A DNA stretch of 8,647 bases from a virus (IMGVR_UViG_2660238215_000009), one strand, 5' to 3'. Numbered from the stretch's first letter, positions 1 to 8,647 are shown. The notes: a model not told the origin generated them from the sequence alone. Program-made: numbers and translations.

Positions 1-1152
1 TTGCAGGAAGGCAGTGGACGCACCCAGACTATCCGCATGATTCTGGTTGTCACGAACACCGAAGCCATCACGCTGAAAATCGACCCGTCTGTGGTTCTGG
101 CAACCCGCAAATATGTGGATGATAAAATCTCAGAGCACGAACAGTCACGACGTCACCCGGACGCCTCGCTGACCGTAAAAGGTTTTACTCAGTTAAGCAG
201 TGCAATTAACAGTGAATCAGAAACACTGGCCGCAACACCGAAAGCGGTTAAGGCTGCATATGACCTGGCTAACGGGAAATATACTGCCCAGAACGCCACC
301 ACAACACAAAAAGGGATTGTTCAGCTCAGTAGCGCCACGAACAGCACGTCTGAAACGCTGGCAGCGACACCAAAAGCTGTTAAGGTGGTAATGGATGAAA
401 CGAACAAGAAAGCACCATTAAACAGCCCGGCACTGACCGGAACGCCAACAACACCAACAGCGCCACAGGGGACTAATAATACCCAGATCGCAAGCACAGC
501 TTTCGTTATGGCCGCGATTGCCGCACTTGTAGATTCGTCACCTGATGCACTGAACACGCTGAACGAACTGGCTGCGGCGCTGGGCAATGACCCGAATTTT
601 GCGACCACCATGACTAACGCGCTTGCGGGTAAGCAACCGAAGGATGCCACCCTGACGGCGCTGGCGGAGCTTGCTACATCAGCAGANNNNNNNNNNNNNN
701 NNNNNNNNNNNNNNNNNNNNNNNNNNNNNNNNNNNNNNNNNNNNNNNNNNNNNNNNNNNNNNNNNNNNNNNNNNNNNNNNNNNNNNNNNNNNNNNNNNNN
801 NNNNNNNNNNNNNNNNNNNNNNNNNNNNNNNNNNNNNNNNNNNNNNNNNNNNNNNNNNNNNNNNNNNNNNNNNNNNNNNNNNNNNNNNNNNNNNNNNNNN
901 NNNNNNNNNNNNNGCATACAGGGGTGGTTAACAGGAAGTCATTATCATAATATTCGGTCATGGGACGCGTGGGATAACACGGTACTGGTGCCAAATGACA
1001 AAGGAGGGGATAGTCTGTTGTCGACAGATAACGCCGTCCGGCAAGGTGCAATTAACGGTAGATTTACCAGTCAATACAGAACGGAATCCTCAGTGGGGAA
1101 TGAAACCCGCCCACGCAATATTGCCTTCAATTATATTGTGAGAACCGCATAA
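1..1152 (+). CDS. Tail fibre protein, 5'-partial. Conserved P2 gpH / Mu S / lambda Stf-type N-terminal region, then a masked segment, then a variable tip ending in the shared C-terminal motif
   Basis: Long ORF with tandem ATPKAVK / SSATNSTSETLAATPKAVK-type repeats and ...NTLNELAAALGNDPNFATTMTNALAGKQPKDATLTALA, characteristic of the conserved N-terminal part of myovirus side tail fibres. Ends ...ETRPRNIAFNYIVRTA, the same C-terminal motif as the three minus-strand cassettes. The TTG at position 1 is almost certainly not the real start; the gene begins upstream of the window. Stop TAA at 1150-1152. Confidence 0.85.
   Translation: MQEGSGRTQTIRMILVVTNTEAITLKIDPSVVLATRKYVDDKISEHEQSRRHPDASLTVKGFTQLSSAINSESETLAATPKAVKAAYDLANGKYTAQNATTTQKGIVQLSSATNSTSETLAATPKAVKVVMDETNKKAPLNSPALTGTPTTPTAPQGTNNTQIASTAFVMAAIAALVDSSPDALNTLNELAAALGNDPNFATTMTNALAGKQPKDATLTALAELATSAXXXXXXXXXXXXXXXXXXXXXXXXXXXXXXXXXXXXXXXXXXXXXXXXXXXXXXXXXXXXXXXXXXXXXXXXXXXXXIQGWLTGSHYHNIRSWDAWDNTVLVPNDKGGDSLLSTDNAVRQGAINGRFTSQYRTESSVGNETRPRNIAFNYIVRTA
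687..913. other. Run of 227 N (masked or unresolved sequence) inside the tail-fibre CDS
   Basis: Directly visible. Reading frame is preserved across it (bases 685..915 = 77 codons), and its position and length match the ~220-bp conserved site-plus-collar-domain block seen at the 5' end of each minus-strand cassette. Confidence 0.99.
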
Positions 1153-1763
1153 TGAATAACGCGATATTAAATGATGACCTTATTGCCGTACAGGCAGGAA
1201 ACATCGTCGTTTATAACTATGATGGTGAAACACGGGAATATATTTCCGAATCAACTGAATATCTTGCTGTGGGTGTCGGTATTCCGGCAAATTCCTGTTT
1301 AGATGCCCCGGGCGCACATAAAGCGGGCTATGCTATCCGCCGTTCGGAGAATTTAAGTTCATGGGAGTATGCGCCAGACCATCGTGGTGAAACCGTCTAT
1401 AACACTGACACGGGAAACACCGAAGAAATCACGACGCTGGGTGACTACCCGAAAAATACAACCACTATCGCCCCGTTAACACCATACGATAAATGGGATG
1501 GTGAAAAATGGGTGACAGATACTGAGGCACAACATGGTGCCGCAGTAGAAGCGGCAGAAACCAAGCGCCAGTCACTGGCTGATGCGGCAATGGCTTCCAT
1601 AAGTCTGATTCAGTTGAAGTTGCAGGCCGGGCGGAAGTTGACGCAGGCAGAAACCACCCGGCTTAACGCCGTGCTGGATTATATAGACGCACTGAACGCA
1701 ATGGATATAAACATGGCACCAGATATCAACTGGCCGGAAATACCACTGGCAGCAGCCAGTTGA
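1152..1763 (+). CDS. tfa: Tail fibre assembly chaperone (Tfa; P2 gpG / Mu U / TfaE family)
   Basis: 203-aa ORF with ATG overlapping the fibre stop (TAATG at 1150-1154), implying translational coupling. Motifs typical of Tfa proteins as recalled: ...DHRGETVYNTDTG...KWDGEKWVTDTEA...ETKRQSL...APDINWPEIP. Stop TGA at 1761-1763. Confidence 0.85.
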   Translation: MNNAILNDDLIAVQAGNIVVYNYDGETREYISESTEYLAVGVGIPANSCLDAPGAHKAGYAIRRSENLSSWEYAPDHRGETVYNTDTGNTEEITTLGDYPKNTTTIAPLTPYDKWDGEKWVTDTEAQHGAAVEAAETKRQSLADAAMASISLIQLKLQAGRKLTQAETTRLNAVLDYIDALNAMDINMAPDINWPEIPLAAAS

Positions 1764-1769
1764 ATATAA

Positions 1770-2246
1770 CTAAGCCGCCCTCACGATATAGTTAAATGCA
1801 ATATTGCGGGGGCGGGTTTCACTACCACCTGTGTTACCAATACTTCCTCGTGAATGAAGCGTTGGTGATGGAATCAAACTCCCTCCTGTATTTGTGGCAT
1901 CAAGCCCCCTGCCTTGTGTATATGTTTTTTTGAAAATCGTGGCCAACTCCCATTCATCCTTTGTGTCATATCCATCGTTAGCTACAACAATATGGCGGTG
2001 TTTTTCCAACATCCCGGTTTGAATGCTCAATAAAGCGCGTGCTGCATCAATTCCTCGCCCATCATCCCAGCCACGGATAAATTCACCGCGTAAATCTGGT
2101 AATTTATTGGTGGGGTAGGCCTTTGCCAGTTTGGGATACATTTCAGAAGAAAATGCTGCACCGTTACATTTCAGCCAGCCCGTTGGTGGTGTAGCTGAGG
2201 GCCACGGAACGGGTACACCAACGGGCAACGCAGAGCCTTCCCCCAA
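1770..2246 (-). CDS. Silent alternative tail-fibre tip cassette 1 (tail-collar domain + variable region + shared C-terminal motif); no own promoter or RBS
   Basis: Minus-strand frame encodes (HENVG)LGEGSALPVGVPVPWPSATPPTGWLKCNGAAFSSEMYPKLAKAYPTNKLPDLRGEFIRGWDDGRGIDA (phage tail-collar domain signature PxGWLxCxG...YPxL...LPDLRGxFxRG), then ~85 variable residues, then ...ETRPRNIAFNYIVRAA. The listed start is a TTG inside the crossover site with no Shine-Dalgarno; the frame stays open upstream to 2267. Stop TAG at 1770-1772, 6 nt from the tfa stop. Confidence 0.7.
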   Translation of the reverse strand: MGEGSALPVGVPVPWPSATPPTGWLKCNGAAFSSEMYPKLAKAYPTNKLPDLRGEFIRGWDDGRGIDAARALLSIQTGMLEKHRHIVVANDGYDTKDEWELATIFKKTYTQGRGLDATNTGGSLIPSPTLHSRGSIGNTGGSETRPRNIAFNYIVRAA

Positions 2247-2263
2247 ACCAACGTTTTCATGCG
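2044..2263. repeat. Conserved ~220-bp block, copy 1 of 3 direct repeats (collar-domain coding + crossover site)
   Basis: By-eye alignment with 2558..2777 and 2998..3216 shows long identical stretches (e.g. cccatcatcccagcc, acatttcagaagaaaatg, gcaccgttacatttcagcc, ggaacgggcacaccaacgggca, aaaccaacgttttc). Identity is estimated at roughly 85-90%, not computed. Confidence 0.85.
2238..2263 (-). other. Candidate 26-bp invertase crossover site S1 (TTCCCCCAAACC-AA-CGTTTTCATGCG)
   Basis: Matches the hix/gix/cix-type architecture as recalled (TTCnnnnAAACC - 2-bp core - GGTTTnnnnnAA): strong left half, AA core at 2250-2251, weaker right half. Sits at the cassette 1 / cassette 2 junction and contains the cassette 2 stop codon (TGA, 2257-2259). 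Confidence 0.55.
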
Positions 2264-2760
2264 GCTCTTACGATGTAATTAAATGCAACGTTGCGAGGGC
2301 GAGTTTCTGTACCTACATTTCCACTAATTTCACCAAACCGTTTTACATTACGAGAGCTAATGGCTCGTAGTGAGGAAGGCACCTTTAAACCGGGTTCGTC
2401 TGTTTTAACTATTCCCCCGTCCCCGTATGTAGCCAGTATTCCAGGGTTTACTCCTTCCCGTGCACTTCCCGCGGCAAGTCCATCCCCGGTCCATAATTCC
2501 ATATAGTGTGCATGATCCAAAATTGTGTGTGGCTGCCAATTAAGCAAAGCGCGGCCAGCATCCACCCCGCGCCCATCATCCCAGCCGCGAATAAATTCGC
2601 CCCGTAAATCCGGTAATTTATTGGCGGGGTAGGCCTTTGCCAGATTGGGGTACATTTCAGAAGAAAATGCTGCACCGTTACATTTCAGCCACCCCGCTGG
2701 CGGCGTGGCTGAAGGCCATGGAACGGGCACACCAACGGGCAGTGCAGAGCCTTCCCCCAA
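2257..2760 (-). CDS. Silent alternative tail-fibre tip cassette 2 (tail-collar domain + variable region + shared C-terminal motif)
   Basis: Encodes (HENVG)LGEGSALPVGVPVPWPSATPPAGWLKCNGAAFSSEMYPNLAKAYPANKLPDLRGEFIRGWDDGRGVDA, then a distinct ~100-aa variable region, then ...TETRPRNVAFNYIVRAA. Start position is a TTG within site S2; no RBS. Confidence 0.7.
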   Translation of the reverse strand: MGEGSALPVGVPVPWPSATPPAGWLKCNGAAFSSEMYPNLAKAYPANKLPDLRGEFIRGWDDGRGVDAGRALLNWQPHTILDHAHYMELWTGDGLAAGSAREGVNPGILATYGDGGIVKTDEPGLKVPSSLRAISSRNVKRFGEISGNVGTETRPRNVAFNYIVRAA

Positions 2761-2777
2761 ACCAACGTTTTCATGCT
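2558..2777. repeat. Conserved ~220-bp block, copy 2 of 3
   Basis: See copy 1; same internal order, ending in crossover site S2. Confidence 0.85.
2752..2777 (-). other. Candidate 26-bp invertase crossover site S2 (TTCCCCCAAACC-AA-CGTTTTCATGCT)
   Basis: Differs from S1 only at its last base; core AA at 2764-2765; contains the cassette 3 stop codon (TGA, 2771-2773). Confidence 0.55.
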
Positions 2778-3256
2778 GCCCTTACGATGTAATTAAACGC
2801 AATATTACGAGGACGAATGGTTACATAATTAACCCCATCACCTCGTGAAGGCCCTGCAAATGAAAAACGGGAAAAGCCTGGTTGGTTAGAAACAATTTGG
2901 TCATAGTTATTGATTGAATGACCAGACCCAATGTCGAAATTACCTCCGTAATGAGAAAAACTTGTACCATCCTGCCCAGAAAGCAGGGTACGTCCCGCAT
3001 CAATCCCGCGCCCATCATCCCAGCCACGGATAAATTCACCGCGTAAATCCGGTAATTTATTGGTGGGATAAGCCCTTGCCAGTCTGGGATACATTTCAGA
3101 AGAAAATGTTGCACCGTTACATTTCAGCCAGCCCGTTGGTGGTGTTGCTAAGGGCCACGGAACGGGCACACCAACGGGCAGTGCAGAACCTTCTCCTAAA
3201 CCAACGTTTTCGTTTTTATCCCTACCTATACCAACTATGTATTTTTCACGAAACAA
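2771..3256 (-). CDS. Silent alternative tail-fibre tip cassette 3 (tail-collar domain + Gly/Ser-rich variable region + shared C-terminal motif)
   Basis: Encodes ...NENVGLGEGSALPVGVPVPWPLATPPTGWLKCNGATFSSEMYPRLARAYPTNKLPDLRGEFIRGWDDGRGIDA, a variable region, then ...VTIRPRNIAFNYIVRAA. The listed 5' end (TTG at 3254-3256) has no Shine-Dalgarno; sequence upstream of site S3 is probably not translated. Confidence 0.65.
   Translation of the reverse strand: MFREKYIVGIGRDKNENVGLGEGSALPVGVPVPWPLATPPTGWLKCNGATFSSEMYPRLARAYPTNKLPDLRGEFIRGWDDGRGIDAGRTLLSGQDGTSFSHYGGNFDIGSGHSINNYDQIVSNQPGFSRFSFAGPSRGDGVNYVTIRPRNIAFNYIVRAA
2998..3216. repeat. Conserved ~220-bp block, copy 3 of 3
   Basis: See copy 1; the most diverged copy (e.g. 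ttctcctaaacc vs ttcccccaaacc in the site). Confidence 0.85.
3191..3216 (-). other. Candidate 26-bp invertase crossover site S3 (TTCTCCTAAACC-AA-CGTTTTCGTTTT), closest to the invertase gene
   Basis: Same architecture as S1 and S2, core AA at 3203-3204. Lies 55 bp upstream of the invertase ATG, analogous to gixR/cixR next to gin/cin. Confidence 0.5.
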
Positions 3257-3270: not shown

Positions 3271-3870
3271 ATGCAAATTGGCTATATTCGTGTGTCAACA
3301 AATGACCAGAACACGGATTTACAACGCAATGCACTGAACTGCGCAGGATGTGAACTGATTTTTGAAGATAAAATCAGCGGAACGAAATCAGCCAGACCGG
3401 GATTGAAAAAACTGCTCAGAACGCTATCAGAAGGAGATACGCTGGTTGTCTGGAAGCTGGACAGACTGGGCAGAAGTATGAAACACCTGATCACGCTTAT
3501 TGAGGAATTGCGGGAAAAAGGTGTTAATTTCCGTAGTCTGACGGACAGCATTGACACATCAACACCCATGGGGCGTTTCTTTTTTCACGTCATGGGGGCT
3601 TTAGCCGAAATGGAACGTGAATTAATTGTAGAGCGTACACTGGCCGGGCTGGCAGCAGCACGCGAACAAGGACGCATTGGCGGACGTCGCCCGAAGTTGA
3701 CAAAAGAACAACACGAGCAAATAGCGAGGCTGATTAAAAACGGTCATGACAGGAAACAACTGGCGATCATTTACGACATCGGCATATCGACGATTTATCG
3801 TTATCACCCTGTAGGCGATATACAGGCTGAAGAAACAACCAGGCAGACTCAGGAAAATGAAAACCGCTAA
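3271..3870 (+). CDS. pin: Serine-recombinase DNA invertase (Pin/Gin/Hin/Cin family)
   Basis: 199 aa: MQIGYIRVSTNDQNTDLQRNALNCAGCELIFEDKISG...LVVWKLDRLGRSMKHLITLIEELREKGVNFRSLTDSIDTSTPMGRFFFHVMGALAEMERELIVERT...GRIGGRRPKLT..., near-identical in motifs to enterobacterial Pin/Gin invertases as recalled. Catalytic Ser9 is codon 3295-3297; C-terminal HTH region present. True start is the ATG at 3271 (RBS, family N-terminus), not the longer listed ORF from 3076. Confidence 0.92.
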   Translation: MQIGYIRVSTNDQNTDLQRNALNCAGCELIFEDKISGTKSARPGLKKLLRTLSEGDTLVVWKLDRLGRSMKHLITLIEELREKGVNFRSLTDSIDTSTPMGRFFFHVMGALAEMERELIVERTLAGLAAAREQGRIGGRRPKLTKEQHEQIARLIKNGHDRKQLAIIYDIGISTIYRYHPVGDIQAEETTRQTQENENR

Positions 3871-3889
3871 TCTGACCATTAGCGGTTTT
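3860..3889. terminator. Candidate bidirectional stem-loop between the convergent invertase and gpU-like genes
   Basis: Perfect 11-bp inverted repeat aaaaccgctaa (3860-3870) / ttagcggtttt (3879-3889) with an 8-nt loop. Overlaps the invertase stop codon; T-rich on both flanks. No free-energy calculation was done. Confidence 0.4.
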
Positions 3890-3896
3890 GCGTTAA

Positions 3897-4391
3897 TCAA
3901 AACAACCCTTTAACGGAGCTGGCCGCGCTGTTAAGGGATGATGTGACCTTATCTTTGAAGCCGGACAGCATATCACTGAACGATGAGGATTGCAGGCGCT
4001 CCCGCAAATCCTCATCACAGCGTTCAAGGGTCAGTGAAAATTCTATCTTTTTCGCCTTACCGTAGCGATCAAACTCGGAACGGGTCGTATTCGTTCCGGT
4101 CAGGACATACATGCCGTAAATCTGCCCGACGCCATCAATCAGAGGCCAGGGTCGTCCTGTATACGCCTGCGTGGTCAGCAGCGACAGCGACACTTCGCCA
4201 CCTGTAATTTCAGGATAAAGCACACCAGAAAGAACGATGCGATCATCACCTGCACCGATATACTGCCAGCTTGCTGAACGGTTAACGCGTTCATTTTTCA
4301 CATGCCGCCAGCTTTTGTTTTGCTGTAACTGCTGATGCGGCAGCGTGCGCAGCTCAAAAACAAACATGCCGTAGATCATCATCATGGCCAT
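3897..4391 (-). CDS. U: P2 gpU-like tail protein
   Basis: 164-aa ORF MAMMMIYGMFVFELRTLPHQQLQQNKSWRH...GVLYPEITGG..., resembling the P2 gpU family as recalled (MMM...FVF...Q..SWRH). Directly follows the tape-measure gene. The true start may be the ATG at 4385 (SD GGAG, 8-nt spacer) rather than 4391. Confidence 0.75.
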   Translation of the reverse strand: MAMMMIYGMFVFELRTLPHQQLQQNKSWRHVKNERVNRSASWQYIGAGDDRIVLSGVLYPEITGGEVSLSLLTTQAYTGRPWPLIDGVGQIYGMYVLTGTNTTRSEFDRYGKAKKIEFSLTLERCDEDLRERLQSSSFSDMLSGFKDKVTSSLNSAASSVKGLF

Positions 4392-4397
4392 GACTCC

Positions 4398-7238
4398 TCA
4401 ATCTTTATCGTAAAAACTGCCACGCCCGGCACGGGCGCGCCGTTCCATTTCTGCCCTGACCATTTCACCGACCAGTTTCGCCAGTTCGCGGGGATTCTGC
4501 GTAACAACGTTATGCAGATGAACATGAATTTCACCGCCAAATCCGGAGGCAACAGGCTCCCGGTTACGGGAAGTTACAGGAACTGATGCCACTGGAGATC
4601 GTATGGCCTCCGCCACCGGGCGGGAGCTGGCCGCAACAACAGGGACCAGCGCCGGAGGCAGCGGAGCCGGGACCACGGGTGTGATATTAATTGCGGGGGG
4701 CTTACTGACCTGCGCAATCTTCCGCTCCTGCCACTCCCCACGAACGGCAAGTGCGCGGGGCAGGTTCTTAAAGACAATATCGCCGGGGCCAATGCGTTTT
4801 TTCGTCTCCTCAACCAGCTTACCTGTGTTATCAGCAATTTTGCTGAGTCTGCGCAGCGTACCGGTATTGCTGTCTGTGAGCGGTTTATTGTCTTTGGGGT
4901 TATCACCTCCGGTACCATTGCCATTTTCCACAGGCTTCGGCGGATTGATTTTCGCCAGGTCCCCCTGAAGCAAGGCAACCTTGTCCTGAAGAATGGCCGC
5001 ACGCTGTGCGTCTTCGATTTTCTTGCGCGCCCTTTCCGCTTCATCCGGAAGGACGCCAAGTTTTTCAAGTATCCACGCCAGCGTATCCAGCAGCATTTTT
5101 GCAGGTGTCAGAACAAGCTGTAACGCACCGCCAAGAACGTTACCGAATATCTCGCCAGCACTGGTACATTTATCCAGCGTTTCCTTGCTGGACTCCATCG
5201 GTGACAGCAGCGATTTAAACCAGTTAAACACCTGGCTGATCCCGCTCCCGATTGCGTCAAAAACAGGACCAAACCGTTCAAAGGTTTCGCGCAACGGGGT
5301 CAGCCTTTCCATAATCCCGCTGAACACCCCGGCAAAAAATGCCCTGATGGGATCCCAGTATTTCCAGATAAGAACGGCAGCTCCGGCAAGCGCAGCCACG
5401 ATAAGACCAACCGGACTGAACAACGCCCCGATAGCGCCTCCCAGTAAAGAAACGGAACCCGTCACCATTCCCCATAGTGCTGGCAGAACCCTGACAGCAT
5501 TCATTGATCCGGTCAGGAGGGAAAAACCAAGACGCAGTTTTGCCAGCGGGCCAGCAAGCACACCAATAGCCAGCGACAACGAGCCAACCGTTGCAGTCAT
5601 TGCCAGCAGTGCACCGCCTGCAATCAGTAGCTGGCGCGTCAGTGCGGGATGGGCCTGCGCCAGCGCCGTCACCTTTGATACCACACGCGTGAGCCACTGC
5701 GTGACAGAACGCAGCGGACCGTCAATCAGATCTGCAATGCGGATGCGCAACCCTTCCCATGCACTGCTGAGTGATTTCAAATCGCCGTCAAGGTTGTTGG
5801 CCATAACCTTTGCCGTGCGTTCAGCCTCACCGCGCGCGCCTTCAAGTTCTTTTCTCAGTTTGGGTAAGGAGCCGTCACCTGCCGCATCAACGAGGGCCAT
5901 AAATGATGTGAAAGCCTCTTCTCCGGCAATGTCCTTAAAGAACGATACCCGGTCAACTTCCCCGTATTTGCGGGTAGCTTTATAAAGGTCAGCCAGCACA
6001 TCCTCCATCGGGCGCATTTTGCCCCCGGCATCCGAGACAGACACGCCAAGCTCTTTCAGCGCCTCTGCTGCCGCCTTTGGCGGTGATGCCAGACGAGCCA
6101 GGCTGGCACGCATTGCCGTACCAGCATCACTCCCCCTGATACCCATATTCGCCAGCACGCCCGCCATCGCTGCGGCCTGCTCCAGCGATATTCCCAGCTT
6201 ACCCGCCACCGGACCTGCATATTTCATGGTTTCACCCAGTGCGCGAAGGTCAGTGTTGGTACGGGTAAACGCTGCGGTGAGTGTGTCGCCGACCCGGTCC
6301 ATCTGGTCAGCAGAAAGACCGAACTGCGTCAGAATATTTGAGCCAATATCCGCCGTCTCACCGAGGTCCATACCGCCAGCCGTTGCCATGCTCAGTACGC
6401 CAGGGAGCGCAGCCTGAATGGCCTGTGGTGTGAAGCCAGCCATTGCAAGAAATGCCTGCCCACTGGCGGCATCGCCTGCGGTGAACTGCGTTTCAGAGCC
6501 AAGTTTTAACGCCTGCTCACGCAGCGCCTTAAACTGCGGGCTGTTTTTGTCGATTCGCGTCAGTGCCTGAACGCGGGACATCTCTTTCCCGAACCCGATC
6601 GCAGGCTGCAAAAAACGCCCGGCAGCATAGCCGCCCGCCGCTGCCGCACCAATTGCCAGCGCACCACCTGTTTTCAGTTTTCCCGCTGTTTCCTGCGCGC
6701 GCGAATACCGCTCACGCGCCTGCGTTACACGCGCAAGCGCCTGCCGTTCGCGTTCAAGCTGGTTGTTGTACTGTTCGGTGCGTCTGATGGCCTGCTGGAT
6801 GGTGTTATCGCTGCCTGTCAGGGAAATGCCGTGGCGTTTCAGCTCTCCGCCAATCTCCCGCATTTTCTGAATTTCCCGTGTGCGCGATTCATTCAGGCGT
6901 TCAAGCCGGGTGCTTAACTGCTGCATCAGCTTTTGTTGTTTTTCGCTGAGCACTGTACCCGTGCGTTGTAACTGATTAAGGGCGTTAAGCTGGCGTCGTG
7001 CTTTCACGATACCCGCATCCGCTTTACTGACAGCGTCGCGGGCGCGCTCAAATGAACGCGCCTGACGCTCGAGATTTTTGATCGCCCCCTGCGTTCGCTG
7101 GATGGAGTCACCAAACTGCCCCATCAGGCGGCGGGCGTTTTCGGCAGGCCGGGTCAGCCTGTCAACGGCGCTGAAAGCGACCCGGATATCAAGAGTCTTC
7201 ATTGTCTGCATTCCCGCTGCGAAGTGCCGCCCGCTCAC
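4398..7238 (-). CDS. T: Tail tape measure protein (P2 gpT-like)
   Basis: 946-aa ORF, Ala/Gly/Leu-rich with long hydrophobic helical stretches and coiled-coil-like Q/R/E-rich N-terminal region; located downstream of the E/E' frameshift pair as in all long-tailed phages. Start uncertain: GTG at 7238, or ATG at 7211 or 7202; overlaps the end of E'. Confidence 0.85.
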   Translation of the reverse strand: MSGRHFAAGMQTMKTLDIRVAFSAVDRLTRPAENARRLMGQFGDSIQRTQGAIKNLERQARSFERARDAVSKADAGIVKARRQLNALNQLQRTGTVLSEKQQKLMQQLSTRLERLNESRTREIQKMREIGGELKRHGISLTGSDNTIQQAIRRTEQYNNQLERERQALARVTQARERYSRAQETAGKLKTGGALAIGAAAAGGYAAGRFLQPAIGFGKEMSRVQALTRIDKNSPQFKALREQALKLGSETQFTAGDAASGQAFLAMAGFTPQAIQAALPGVLSMATAGGMDLGETADIGSNILTQFGLSADQMDRVGDTLTAAFTRTNTDLRALGETMKYAGPVAGKLGISLEQAAAMAGVLANMGIRGSDAGTAMRASLARLASPPKAAAEALKELGVSVSDAGGKMRPMEDVLADLYKATRKYGEVDRVSFFKDIAGEEAFTSFMALVDAAGDGSLPKLRKELEGARGEAERTAKVMANNLDGDLKSLSSAWEGLRIRIADLIDGPLRSVTQWLTRVVSKVTALAQAHPALTRQLLIAGGALLAMTATVGSLSLAIGVLAGPLAKLRLGFSLLTGSMNAVRVLPALWGMVTGSVSLLGGAIGALFSPVGLIVAALAGAAVLIWKYWDPIRAFFAGVFSGIMERLTPLRETFERFGPVFDAIGSGISQVFNWFKSLLSPMESSKETLDKCTSAGEIFGNVLGGALQLVLTPAKMLLDTLAWILEKLGVLPDEAERARKKIEDAQRAAILQDKVALLQGDLAKINPPKPVENGNGTGGDNPKDNKPLTDSNTGTLRRLSKIADNTGKLVEETKKRIGPGDIVFKNLPRALAVRGEWQERKIAQVSKPPAINITPVVPAPLPPALVPVVAASSRPVAEAIRSPVASVPVTSRNREPVASGFGGEIHVHLHNVVTQNPRELAKLVGEMVRAEMERRARAGRGSFYDKD

Positions 7239-7425
7239 GCCAGCTAACCACTTCGCCGGGCGTCATCATGAAGATTTCGGCGGGCGACCAGTTAAAAATA
7301 ACGGCAATATCTGCCACAAAGTCTTCTATGTGCTCAAAGCACACAACCGTGATCAGGCTTCCGTCGCCTGTTCGTTCTTCCCGCCAGAGTCCGCACCGCT
7401 CAAAAAATTTACGGCAACCACACAT
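7189..7425 (-). CDS. E': E' extension frame of the tail assembly chaperone; expressed only as an E+E' fusion by -1 frameshifting
   Basis: ORF in the -1 frame relative to E, overlapping its 3' end and the tape-measure start. After the slip the sequence reads ...NFL-ERCGLWREERTGDGSLITVV..., which matches this ORF. Stop at 7189-7191. Confidence 0.7.
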   Translation of the reverse strand: MCGCRKFFERCGLWREERTGDGSLITVVCFEHIEDFVADIAVIFNWSPAEIFMMTPGEVVSWRERAALRSGNADNEDS

Positions 7426-7718
7426 AACTGAATAAAGTCACGGGATGCCATTTTTTTGATCGTCACTTCATCCAGTCGCGGTGATGTCACGCGTGACAGC
7501 AGCGTAAACATGGATTCCGCTTTCAGATTCAGCACATCAGACAGCGACAAATCTCGCAGAGATCCAGCCTGCTCAATAGCCCCGGTGATCTCCACATACG
7601 TGATTTTTTCGCCGCCTCGCTCAATTGGTTGGGTAAGTTTTACGCCACGCTCACTGGTTTCTTTCACAGTGTCAGCAACTACCGTGTTTTCGGTATCGAT
7701 GTTTTTCGTCTCTTTCAT
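7353..7718 (-). CDS. E: Tail assembly chaperone (P2 gpE-like)
   Basis: 121-aa acidic ORF immediately upstream of the tape-measure gene with a strong RBS (AAGGAG, 7-nt spacer) before the ATG at 7716-7718; contains the slippery site near its 3' end. Confidence 0.8.
   Translation of the reverse strand: MKETKNIDTENTVVADTVKETSERGVKLTQPIERGGEKITYVEITGAIEQAGSLRDLSLSDVLNLKAESMFTLLSRVTSPRLDEVTIKKMASRDFIQLCVVAVNFLSGADSGGKNEQATEA
7401..7407 (-). other. Programmed -1 ribosomal frameshift slippery heptamer T_TTT_TTG (minus strand)
   Basis: Minus-strand sequence AAT TTT TTG AGC (N-F-L-S in the E frame). An X_XXY_YYZ heptamer at the point where the E and E' frames overlap, the same type of site described for the P2 E/E+E' pair. 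Confidence 0.75.
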
Positions 7719-7772
7719 CAGGAAACTCCTTTCAGTCAGAGGCGACGCACTGCGCCGCCTGCATATTACTTA

Positions 7773-8285
7773 TCAGCCAAGCCCAAGCGCGGAACGGATG
7801 CGATCGGGCACAATGTCCTTGCCGTCCTTCCGGTAAATGAAGTTCAGCAGGTCAATCTCCCACAGCGGGCGATCGTTAACGCTCAGCTTGTAGTAGGTGT
7901 TTTTAATGGCGTAAGAGTGTGATGTGGCTTCGCCCTGTTTGGCTTCCCCCATATCAATTTCCGTCACACGTCCGCGCATTTCGACTTCATACAGGTCGCT
8001 TTCTGCATCGGTGTAGTATTCACCCGCAAAACGCAGCAGCGTGCCGTCAATCGTGCCGCCATACTTAAGGAACAGCTCACGAACTGCGCCCCCCATGACA
8101 AAGCTCGCATCAAGCGCGGAGTCGTCCAGACCGAGATCAATACTTACCGCACCCATCATGCCACCACCCCAGTAGCTGTCGGTTTTGCGCGTCAGCTTAG
8201 GCAGAGTGACGGACGTCACCTTACCCACTTCGTTTTCACCATCCACAAACAGCGTAAAAAAGCGAAGATGTTTTGGCACAGCCAT
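7773..8285 (-). CDS. FII: Major tail tube protein (P2 gpFII-like)
   Basis: 170-aa ORF MAVPKHLRFFTLFVDGENEVGKVTSVTLPKLTRKTDSYWGGGMMGAV..., resembling contractile-tail tube proteins. ATG at 8283-8285 overlaps the sheath stop (TGATG). Confidence 0.85.
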   Translation of the reverse strand: MAVPKHLRFFTLFVDGENEVGKVTSVTLPKLTRKTDSYWGGGMMGAVSIDLGLDDSALDASFVMGGAVRELFLKYGGTIDGTLLRFAGEYYTDAESDLYEVEMRGRVTEIDMGEAKQGEATSHSYAIKNTYYKLSVNDRPLWEIDLLNFIYRKDGKDIVPDRIRSALGLG

Positions 8286-8647
8286 CAGGCACCTCCCAGC
8301 ACCGCAAATGCGGGTTCAAAGTATTCATCAGTAAACGTCTGGTAAAGCTCCATATCTTCCAGCGGGGGAACAGGCGTATATTTGTAGCGAATACGCACAC
8401 GCCCCTGACGTAAATCCGTGGTGCTGTTATCCACCACGTCATACCAGCACTCCGCGCCAATCAGTTTCCCGGCAGTAACCAGTGAATCCAGTTTTGCCCT
8501 GATGGCACTGATAACATCCTTCACGTTCGCAGGCGTCAGTGGACTGTCGATGGTTTCAAACTGCGCTTCCGCAATTGAATCAGCCAACACCTGTGCGGTT
8601 CGGGTATACACCTCAAAGATGTAGGCGTTCGTTTCCGGTGTGCGGTT
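8285..8647 (-). CDS. FI: Tail sheath protein (P2 gpFI-like), C-terminal part; 5' end lies beyond the window
   Basis: Frame is open from the window edge (8647) to TGA at 8285-8287; C-terminal sequence ...RVRIRYKYTPVPPLEDMELYQTFTDEYFEPAFAVLGGA. Position immediately upstream of the tube gene fits sheath-tube order. Confidence 0.75.
   Translation of the reverse strand, partial: NRTPETNAYIFEVYTRTAQVLADSIAEAQFETIDSPLTPANVKDVISAIRAKLDSLVTAGKLIGAECWYDVVDNSTTDLRQGRVRIRYKYTPVPPLEDMELYQTFTDEYFEPAFAVLGGA

Follow-up and report, generated by a model that had tools for sequence, protein, structure and literature searches.

Exchange of phage tail-fibre tips by DNA inversion is known from several systems, among them the Min multiple-inversion system of plasmid p15B, which is said to have been described by Sandmeier, Iida and Arber in 1990–1992. 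The present analysis concerns a comparable tail-fibre locus in a viral DNA sequence of 8,647 nt (IMGVR_UViG_2660238215_000009). The whole of this stretch is referred to as the window, and features are numbered from its first letter. According to a published summary, the serine invertase of p15B Min yields variable tail fibres through multiple inversions (PMC6109161). Like p15B Min, the window contains one constant 5' fibre part, several 3' cassettes that each lie behind a crossover site, and an adjacent serine invertase. It differs from p15B Min in its P2-like prophage setting and its four tips.

The G segment of Mu, with Gin, and the C segment of P1, with Cin, share with the window a Gin-like invertase, the same kind of crossover site and a host-range switch by exchange of the fibre 3' end. 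In Mu and P1, there are two states and each tip has its own tail-fibre assembly chaperone gene (tfa; U/U'). In contrast, the window has four tips or more, and its one tfa also undergoes inversion. The Mu/P1 pattern of two tips, each with its own tfa, is therefore absent from the window, where one tfa accompanies four tips. Relatives of the window locus with the classic two-tfa arrangement also exist. A preliminary description of the window had set its arrangement apart from those of Mu and P1. The arrangement does differ, but it is not unusual, as it is the standard layout of a widespread family present in Escherichia coli P2-like prophages and P1-like plasmids.

A shufflon has also been described in a prophage of enteropathogenic E. 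coli (EPEC) E2348/69 (Goldberg et al. 2014; PMC4272514). The constant part of its H fibre gene (Hc), its tfa, its invertase and its gpU are 96–100% identical to those of the window at the protein level, and the same unit of type-B tip, tfa and type-A tip is present. The E2348/69 prophage has three tips and three sites, compared with four tips in the window. The published description of this shufflon contains no discussion of tfa or of a C-terminal motif.

The tips of the window resemble the collars of two T4 proteins, gp37 (domain D10) and gp12. In both, an N-half of approximately 70 residues and a closing segment (NIAFNYIVRLA in gp37, NISLNYIIK in gp12) have a receptor-binding domain between them, and HxH motifs are present. 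The window inserts are much shorter than the gp37 needle. The chaperones differ as well: that of the window belongs to the Tfa family, gp37 has gp38 and gp57A, and gp12 has gp57A only. The window tfa shares with the Tfa family (Caudo_TAP; Mu gp50/U, lambda Tfa and P2 gpG) its domain match, its place directly downstream of a fibre gene and its two-domain layout.

We consider it likely that the tail-fibre gene of this P2-like prophage contains a multiple-inversion system of the Min/Gin type, a serine-recombinase shufflon. In this reading, a conserved 16-residue segment (16-mer) at the end of each tip is the closing segment of a collar domain, and the single Tfa would be generic.

Organization of the inversion system

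By its open reading frames (ORFs) and Pfam matches, the window covers tail genes of a P2-like prophage. At its left end, the plus strand carries a gpH-like fibre gene (H), of which the 3' two-thirds are included (Table 1). Its constant part is 98–100% identical to H genes of E. coli prophages, which are themselves located downstream of V, W, J and I. Three silent ORFs of 158–167 amino acids (aa) each match Pfam Collar (PF07484) within their first 60–75 residues; the three complete cassettes score 52.7–55.9 bits against a cut-off of 24. These cassettes have two repeats in common, one of 271 nt at the 5' end (80–88% identical) and one of 53 nt at the 3' end (66–79% identical). The invertase aligns with the structure of Mu Gin (4M6F) over residues 1–185 with an E-value of 1.8e-91. 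Crossover sites of the Gin/Hin type, 26 bp long and reading TTC(C/T)CC(C/T)AAACC AA CGTTTTC, are present at 2238, 2752 and 3191, all in one orientation. The ORFs, repeats, Pfam matches and crossover sites agree with one another and thus support the anatomy of a shufflon.

The comparison set consists of 129 related loci with 223 intact cassettes and 44 unrelated insert types. In the relatives, the same site is present at every cassette start, and an additional site inside H is inverted relative to the cassette-start sites. The corresponding partner site of the window would lie in H under a run of 227 N. The window contains four tips; its relatives contain 3–11 cassettes and 3–10 sites. The invertase would recombine the H site with the oppositely oriented sites where the cassettes begin, and such an inversion would fuse any single cassette to the constant part.

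Inversion of this module is real, since different isomers are present both among near-identical prophages and between assemblies of one strain. The two assemblies of E. coli E2348/69 are in opposite states, Hc>G>A><tfa<B (L005) and Hc>B>tfa><A<G (L006). At this prophage locus, four coexisting variants were confirmed by polymerase chain reaction, with inversions of approximately 2.2 and 1.8 kb (PMC4272514), and the spacing of the three sites fits both inversions. The same module is found in many E. coli P2-like prophages and in P1-like plasmids of approximately 95 kb (88–90% DNA identity), one of which has 10 crossover sites and a single tfa. Many viral contigs (L049–L128, IMG/VR) end within the invertible region. 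One of them, L050 (Hc>G>A><tfa B>tfa><A), seems to combine two isomers in a chimeric assembly.

In E. coli relatives, the flanks of the N-run are 332 nt apart where a type-B tip is fused to H and 725–810 nt apart where another tip is fused. In the relatives with the longer spacing, type B is a silent plus-strand cassette. The N-run keeps the reading frame and is 105 nt shorter than the 332-nt spacing. It thus falls 35 codons short of an intact collar, and so the mask probably does not preserve length. A spacing of 227 nt between these flanks is found in no E. coli genome searched, and there is no closer copy of the locus among the genome contigs searched. The first tip had been called resident in the preliminary description. 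Its fusion to H cannot be shown, as the N-run hides the H crossover site and the N-half of the collar. The cassette order A, E, G is the one that two inversions of a four-tip set with type B fused would be expected to produce.

Conservation of the C-terminal 16-mer

The 3' ends of the four tips translate as ETRPRNIAFNYIVRTA (type B, plus strand), ETRPRNIAFNYIVRAA (type A, minus strand), ETRPRNVAFNYIVRAA (type E, minus strand) and TIRPRNIAFNYIVRAA (type G, minus strand). The ending ETRPRN(I/V)AFNYIVR(A/T)A, which had been attributed to all four tips, is present in three of them and does not describe type G. Pairwise, the four 3' ends are 67–81% identical over 48 nt of DNA and share 13–15 of 16 residues. 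Per pair, 6–9 synonymous codons differ and only 1–3 non-synonymous ones. Types B and A, which had been put at approximately 80% by eye, are identical at 39 of 48 positions (81%). Conservation at the protein level despite many synonymous differences, as originally described, is thereby confirmed.

Across the 223 cassettes and 44 insert types, the invariant core of the motif is RPRNxAFNYIVR, and the first two motif positions vary. For this 12-codon core, the proportion of synonymous differences between the 44 insert types (pS) is 0.73, which is near saturation, and that of non-synonymous differences (pN) is 0.09. What is under selection is the peptide rather than a DNA site. This agrees with the earlier proposal that the segment is not a recombination site, and the true sites are located at the cassette 5' ends.

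It is extremely improbable that the 3' ends are instead conserved as DNA, whether because they form a secondary recombination site or because cassettes undergo gene conversion with one another. Such an explanation would fit the 61-nt inverted repeat (79% identical) that the type-B and type-A tips form with their 3' ends on either side of tfa. However, the identity of the 3' ends is low for a DNA-level constraint and their differences are concentrated at synonymous positions, which are near saturation between insert types. The 3' ends are also unlike the crossover core AAACC-NN-GGTTT. None of the isomers among the related loci has an inversion of just tfa between B and A.

The ratio of non-synonymous to synonymous substitution rates (dN/dS) is 0.07 for type A, based on 17 distinct tfa-less copies in single-tfa loci, and 0.12–0.26 for the other silent types. 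These values indicate that the silent cassettes are functional.

The 16-mer as the probable closing segment of a collar

By homology to solved structures, the 16-mer is the segment in which the chain returns and completes a discontinuous collar domain. Cassette A aligns with the T4 gp37 structure 2XGF (E-value 6.7e-18) at both chain ends. Residues 5–87 of the cassette align with gp37 811–887, and residues 135–158 align with gp37 1003–1026, the last 24 residues of 2XGF. The 16-mer corresponds to gp37 1011–1026, and the gp37 chain ends NIAFNYIVRLA. The collar domain D10 of gp37 consists of residues 811–881 and 1010–1026, with the needle domain D11 inserted into it, and its fold is common to the collar of gp12 (PMC6957217). 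The closing segment also aligns in the gp12 structure 1OCY, where it reads GNETRPWNISLNYIIK. For its assembly, gp12 requires gp57A and neither gp38 nor Tfa (PMC3004832).

The motif is not confined to chain ends. It is internal in the short tail fibre 9cuy_c, which has 554 residues. A search of 1.84 billion cluster representatives returned 13,728 relatives of the cassette, and the motif is C-terminal in 112 of the best 150. Long fibre proteins (P0124, P0127, P0135, P0170 and P0258) contain 2–5 tandem collar modules, each closed by an internal ETRPRNxAxxxxI[KR]A with more protein after it. Because the motif closes internal modules and is present in a Tfa-independent fibre, it is an element of the fold and not a C-terminal tag. 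The constraint of the fold explains the conservation of the 16-mer and makes a chaperone-docking explanation unnecessary.

Fold and trimer packing of the fibre itself would account for the protein-level conservation. Each tip would be a complete collar module of approximately 150–165 residues, with an N-half of approximately 70 conserved residues (Pfam Collar), a non-homologous, putatively receptor-binding insert of approximately 55–80 residues, mostly with an HxH motif, and the closing segment. An HxH motif is present in three of the four inserts: SHYH in B (approximately 940–955), HRH in A (approximately 1990–2005) and HAH in E (approximately 2505–2520). Type G has a single His (SHY). The HxH of inserts B, A and E resembles the metal-binding sites in T4 gp37 and gp12.

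The preliminary description put forward, as a hypothesis, a docking or trimerisation role of the 16-mer. Its conservation as a docking peptide for Tfa is not supported as stated, given its alignment to the gp37 collar segment. That the 16-mer or its last few residues are conserved as a specific docking element for the Tfa N-domain is a somewhat unlikely explanation, although several observations are in its favour. The class of the Tfa N-domain varies with the six terminal residues of the tip (YIVRAA/YIVRTA, YIVRI[AVI], [FL]LVRAK and YIVKAE), even with the same C-domain class. Among the tfa-less cassettes of single-tfa loci, 90 of 91 have an NYIVRxx tail (89 NYIVRAx and 1 NYIVRTA). Insert type L switches its tail together with the Tfa class, and the N-domain of Mu Tfa binds to the fibre in its C-terminal region (PMC9608196).

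However, the 3' end of the tip runs directly into the 5' end of tfa, and the stop codon of the tip overlaps the start codon of tfa. The same correlation could result from co-inheritance or from a constraint imposed by the ribosome-binding site of tfa. As both features are adjacent on the DNA, the correlation between tail and N-domain can be explained by linkage alone. The core of the 16-mer is invariant while the neighbouring Tfa diverges to 27–55% identity, and the motif is present in gp12, which does without Tfa, and inside multi-module proteins. In Photorhabdus, the tfa-less cassette H ends YIVRAA, whereas the cassette that adjoins tfa ends YIVRI[AV].

Insert type L is found on two collar frameworks (L013 65–514 versus L067, L068, L069 and L073). 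Its tail is either NYIVRAA or, with a longer N-half, NFLVRAK. On the NFLVRAK framework, the N-domain of the adjacent Tfa is only approximately 31% identical to that of the window.

A single tfa gene in two orientations

As described previously, there is one tfa for several tips. No second tfa is present in the window. Additional tfa genes just outside the window had been named among the findings that would refute the proposal, and none is present in the whole 40-kb prophage of the E2348/69 relative. The window tfa scores 114.3 bits for Caudo_TAP against a gathering cut-off of 22.1. Its ATG overlaps the stop codon of the type-B tip (TAATG at 1150–1154), and a stop/start overlap of 1 or 4 nt is present in 108 of 111 tip–tfa pairs. 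Type B is directly upstream of tfa in 28 of 29 copies, and cassette A is convergent with tfa, 6 nt from its stop codon. Type E has its own tfa downstream in other phages. All 10 copies of type G are without a tfa downstream.

In single-tfa loci, the unit formed by the type-B tip, tfa and a convergent tip (usually A) is always intact and contains no internal site. The tfa gene therefore flips with this unit. In complete E. coli genomes, H is joined to tfa in the sense orientation in 38 cases and in the antisense orientation in 34. At 97% identity or higher, the orientation is sense in 16 records and antisense in 16. The expectation that an inversion would also invert tfa is thus borne out, with antisense about as common as sense. 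Given the geometry of the locus, a fusion of type A to H requires tfa to be antisense. Type A is nevertheless under purifying selection. Either Tfa is supplied irrespective of orientation or these tips do not need it.

Several sources of a tfa transcript in the antisense states were considered and rejected. In the P2-like context, the convergent tail operon could supply tfa by read-through, but a strong hairpin stands in between, and a convergent operon is lacking in the P1-like plasmids that share the module. This hairpin (3860–3889) is a candidate bidirectional terminator that would limit read-through out of the tail operon. A promoter within the type-B cassette was also rejected: along B and tfa, no drop in third-position diversity stands out from the variation inside tfa, and the scan found no sigma-70-like site in the cassette. 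An Ogr-type late promoter that feeds tfa from the invertase side was the third candidate.

The third candidate concerns a TGT-N12-ACA dyad at 3238–3255 (TGTATTTTTCACGAAACA), the only one in the window, which is located in a fixed spacer between the last crossover site and the invertase ATG. The dyad is kept in all single-tfa loci, including the diverged P1-like ones, and is absent from the classic two-tfa loci. The E2348/69 prophage lacks the strict motif where its late promoters would be expected, and the spacer is also present in the P1-like plasmids. P1-like plasmids use a different late activator. Because the strict motif is missing from the regions where late promoters are expected, the dyad is left uninterpreted.

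Five Photorhabdus loci (L015, L016, L022, L024 and L027) have two plus-strand collar cassettes in a row, followed by a single tfa. No crossover sites and no invertase are found within the stretch covered, and these loci have a non-invertible form of the several-tips, one-tfa arrangement.

Recognition of the tips by Tfa

That one Tfa serves all tips through their conserved framework is plausible and is partly anticipated in the literature. The single Tfa would be a generic chaperone for all collar-type tips and would act on the conserved framework rather than on the variable insert. With a generic Tfa, a cassette could be viable even if it has no tfa of its own. The Tfa proteins found next to 19 unrelated insert types have a mean identity of 82% in the N-domain and 84% in the C-domain. 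In this subfamily, the N-domain is thus not adapted to individual inserts. From one unrelated insert to another, it varies no more than the C-domain, unlike the published picture of a non-conserved N-domain (PMC9608196). Types A, C, D, E, F and J, which are silent and tfa-less in single-tfa loci, each have their own tfa in classic two-tfa loci, and the Tfa proteins encoded there are 78–83% identical to that of the window.

In the gp37/Stf family, conserved flanks surround a variable receptor domain of approximately 30–70 residues, the adjacent assembly protein is conserved, and lambda Tfa can replace T4 gp38 (PMC9659904). The PDB contains no sequence-detectable relative of the window Tfa. Tfa may recognise the conserved collar framework, tail included.

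A different explanation is that Tfa serves only the translationally coupled type-B tip, and that the other tips fold alone or through chaperones of the host or of other prophages, so that the orientation of tfa is irrelevant. We regard this as unlikely. It is in keeping with the near-invariant unit of type B and tfa, with the absence of tfa from every copy of type G, and with purifying selection on type A, which is expressible only with tfa antisense. T4 gp12, which has the same collar, likewise has no need of Tfa or gp38. Set against this are types A, C, D, E, F and J, whose own tfa genes in other phages suggest that these tips depend on Tfa, and P2, in which gpG is essential for the fibres.

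A further and more speculative proposal, which is also improbable, combines two parts. In the first, the C-terminal tail of the collar would be an address that is read by the Tfa N-domain, so that one chaperone could fold any insert on the framework. In the second, Tfa would be supplied in both orientations by an inward-facing promoter at the invertase end, for which the dyad at 3238–3255 is a candidate element, or by an internal promoter.

The favoured reading of the locus, a Min/Gin-type shufflon with a collar-closing 16-mer and a generic Tfa, has several points to contend with. In the window, the N-run conceals the crossover site of H and the junction between H and the first tip. For tfa in the antisense orientation, a consensus scan found no sigma-70-like promoter, and the terminator-like hairpin separates tfa from the convergent tail operon. 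The AlphaFold2 model of cassette A, made from a shallow alignment of 11 sequences, has a mean predicted local distance difference test score (pLDDT) of 41.4. As this model is unusable, the collar assignment rests on sequence homology to solved structures. In the model proposed for Mu, the variable Tfa N-domain binds the distal part of the fibre (PMC9608196), which would predict tip-specific chaperones rather than a generic one.

Features and neighbouring genes of the window

Table 1. Positions of the tail-fibre module and of adjoining features in the 8,647-nt window
Feature	Position	Strand	Evidence and remarks
gpH-like tail-fibre gene, constant part	1..686	+	Pfam Phage_fiber_2 3.1e-42, Phage_tail_fib; left end outside window
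N-run, 227 N	687..913	.	Covers end of constant part, H crossover site s0 and collar N-half of first tip
Type-B tip, 3' part	914..1152	+	Variable insert with SHYH; closing motif 1102-1149; stop TAA 1150-1152
tfa, tail-fibre assembly chaperone gene (203 aa)	1152..1763	+	Pfam Caudo_TAP (PF02413) 5.8e-33, residues 78-198
Silent cassette type A (158 aa)	1770..2246	-	Pfam Collar 4.4e-15; insert with HRH; closing motif 1773-1820
Crossover site, cassette A 5' end	2238..2263	-	TTCCCCCAAACC AA CGTTTTCATGCG; outer half overlaps cassette E stop codon
Silent cassette type E (167 aa)	2257..2760	-	Pfam Collar 4e-14; closing motif 2260-2307
Crossover site, cassette E 5' end	2752..2777	-	Repeat and site search
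Silent cassette type G	2771..3256	-	Pfam Collar 4.2e-15; collar start near 3199; closing motif 2774-2821 = TIRPRNIAFNYIVRAA
Crossover site, cassette G 5' end	3191..3216	-	Adjoins invertase gene
Serine DNA invertase, Gin/Hin/Cin/Pin/Min family	3271..3870	+	Pfam Resolvase 2.2e-51, HTH_7 1.4e-12
Hairpin, 12-bp stem, A-run and T-run at flanks	3860..3889	.	Between invertase and gpU stops; pattern match only
gpU, tape measure, E/E', tail tube, sheath	3897-8647	-	Beyond invertase

The type-B tip has a weak match to the C-terminal end of PF14928, the T4 gp12 receptor-binding domain, at family positions 65–92 of 93, with an E-value of 0.001 that is under the family cut-off. The ORF of cassette G reaches past its crossover site to a TTG at 3256 (MFREKYIVGIGRDKNENVGL..., minus strand). 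This start is probably not real, because there is no apparent Shine-Dalgarno sequence. The stops and last codons of cassettes E and G (2257–2263 and 2771–2777) lie within the outer half-site of the next cassette's crossover site, and so a few terminal bases do double duty.

Compared with the gene order of P2, the tail operon (sheath, tube, E/E', tape measure and gpU) is inverted, and it converges with H. In the relative from E2348/69 (L129 26390–34503), a short gpD-like gene and ogr are present past the sheath gene on the other strand.

Implications

The locus is a further copy of the well-described Min/Gin-type fibre shufflons, and the 16-mer is a known structural element. The expression of tfa in the antisense half of the isomers decides which shufflon states yield infectious particles. 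If the collar tail is an address that Tfa reads and Tfa is supplied in both orientations, the two together would amount to a general design rule for host-range switching by cassettes and would offer a handle for fibre engineering. If one chaperone does read the conserved framework, new receptor-binding inserts would be usable in phage and tailocin fibres without a matching chaperone, which would be of use in host-range engineering.

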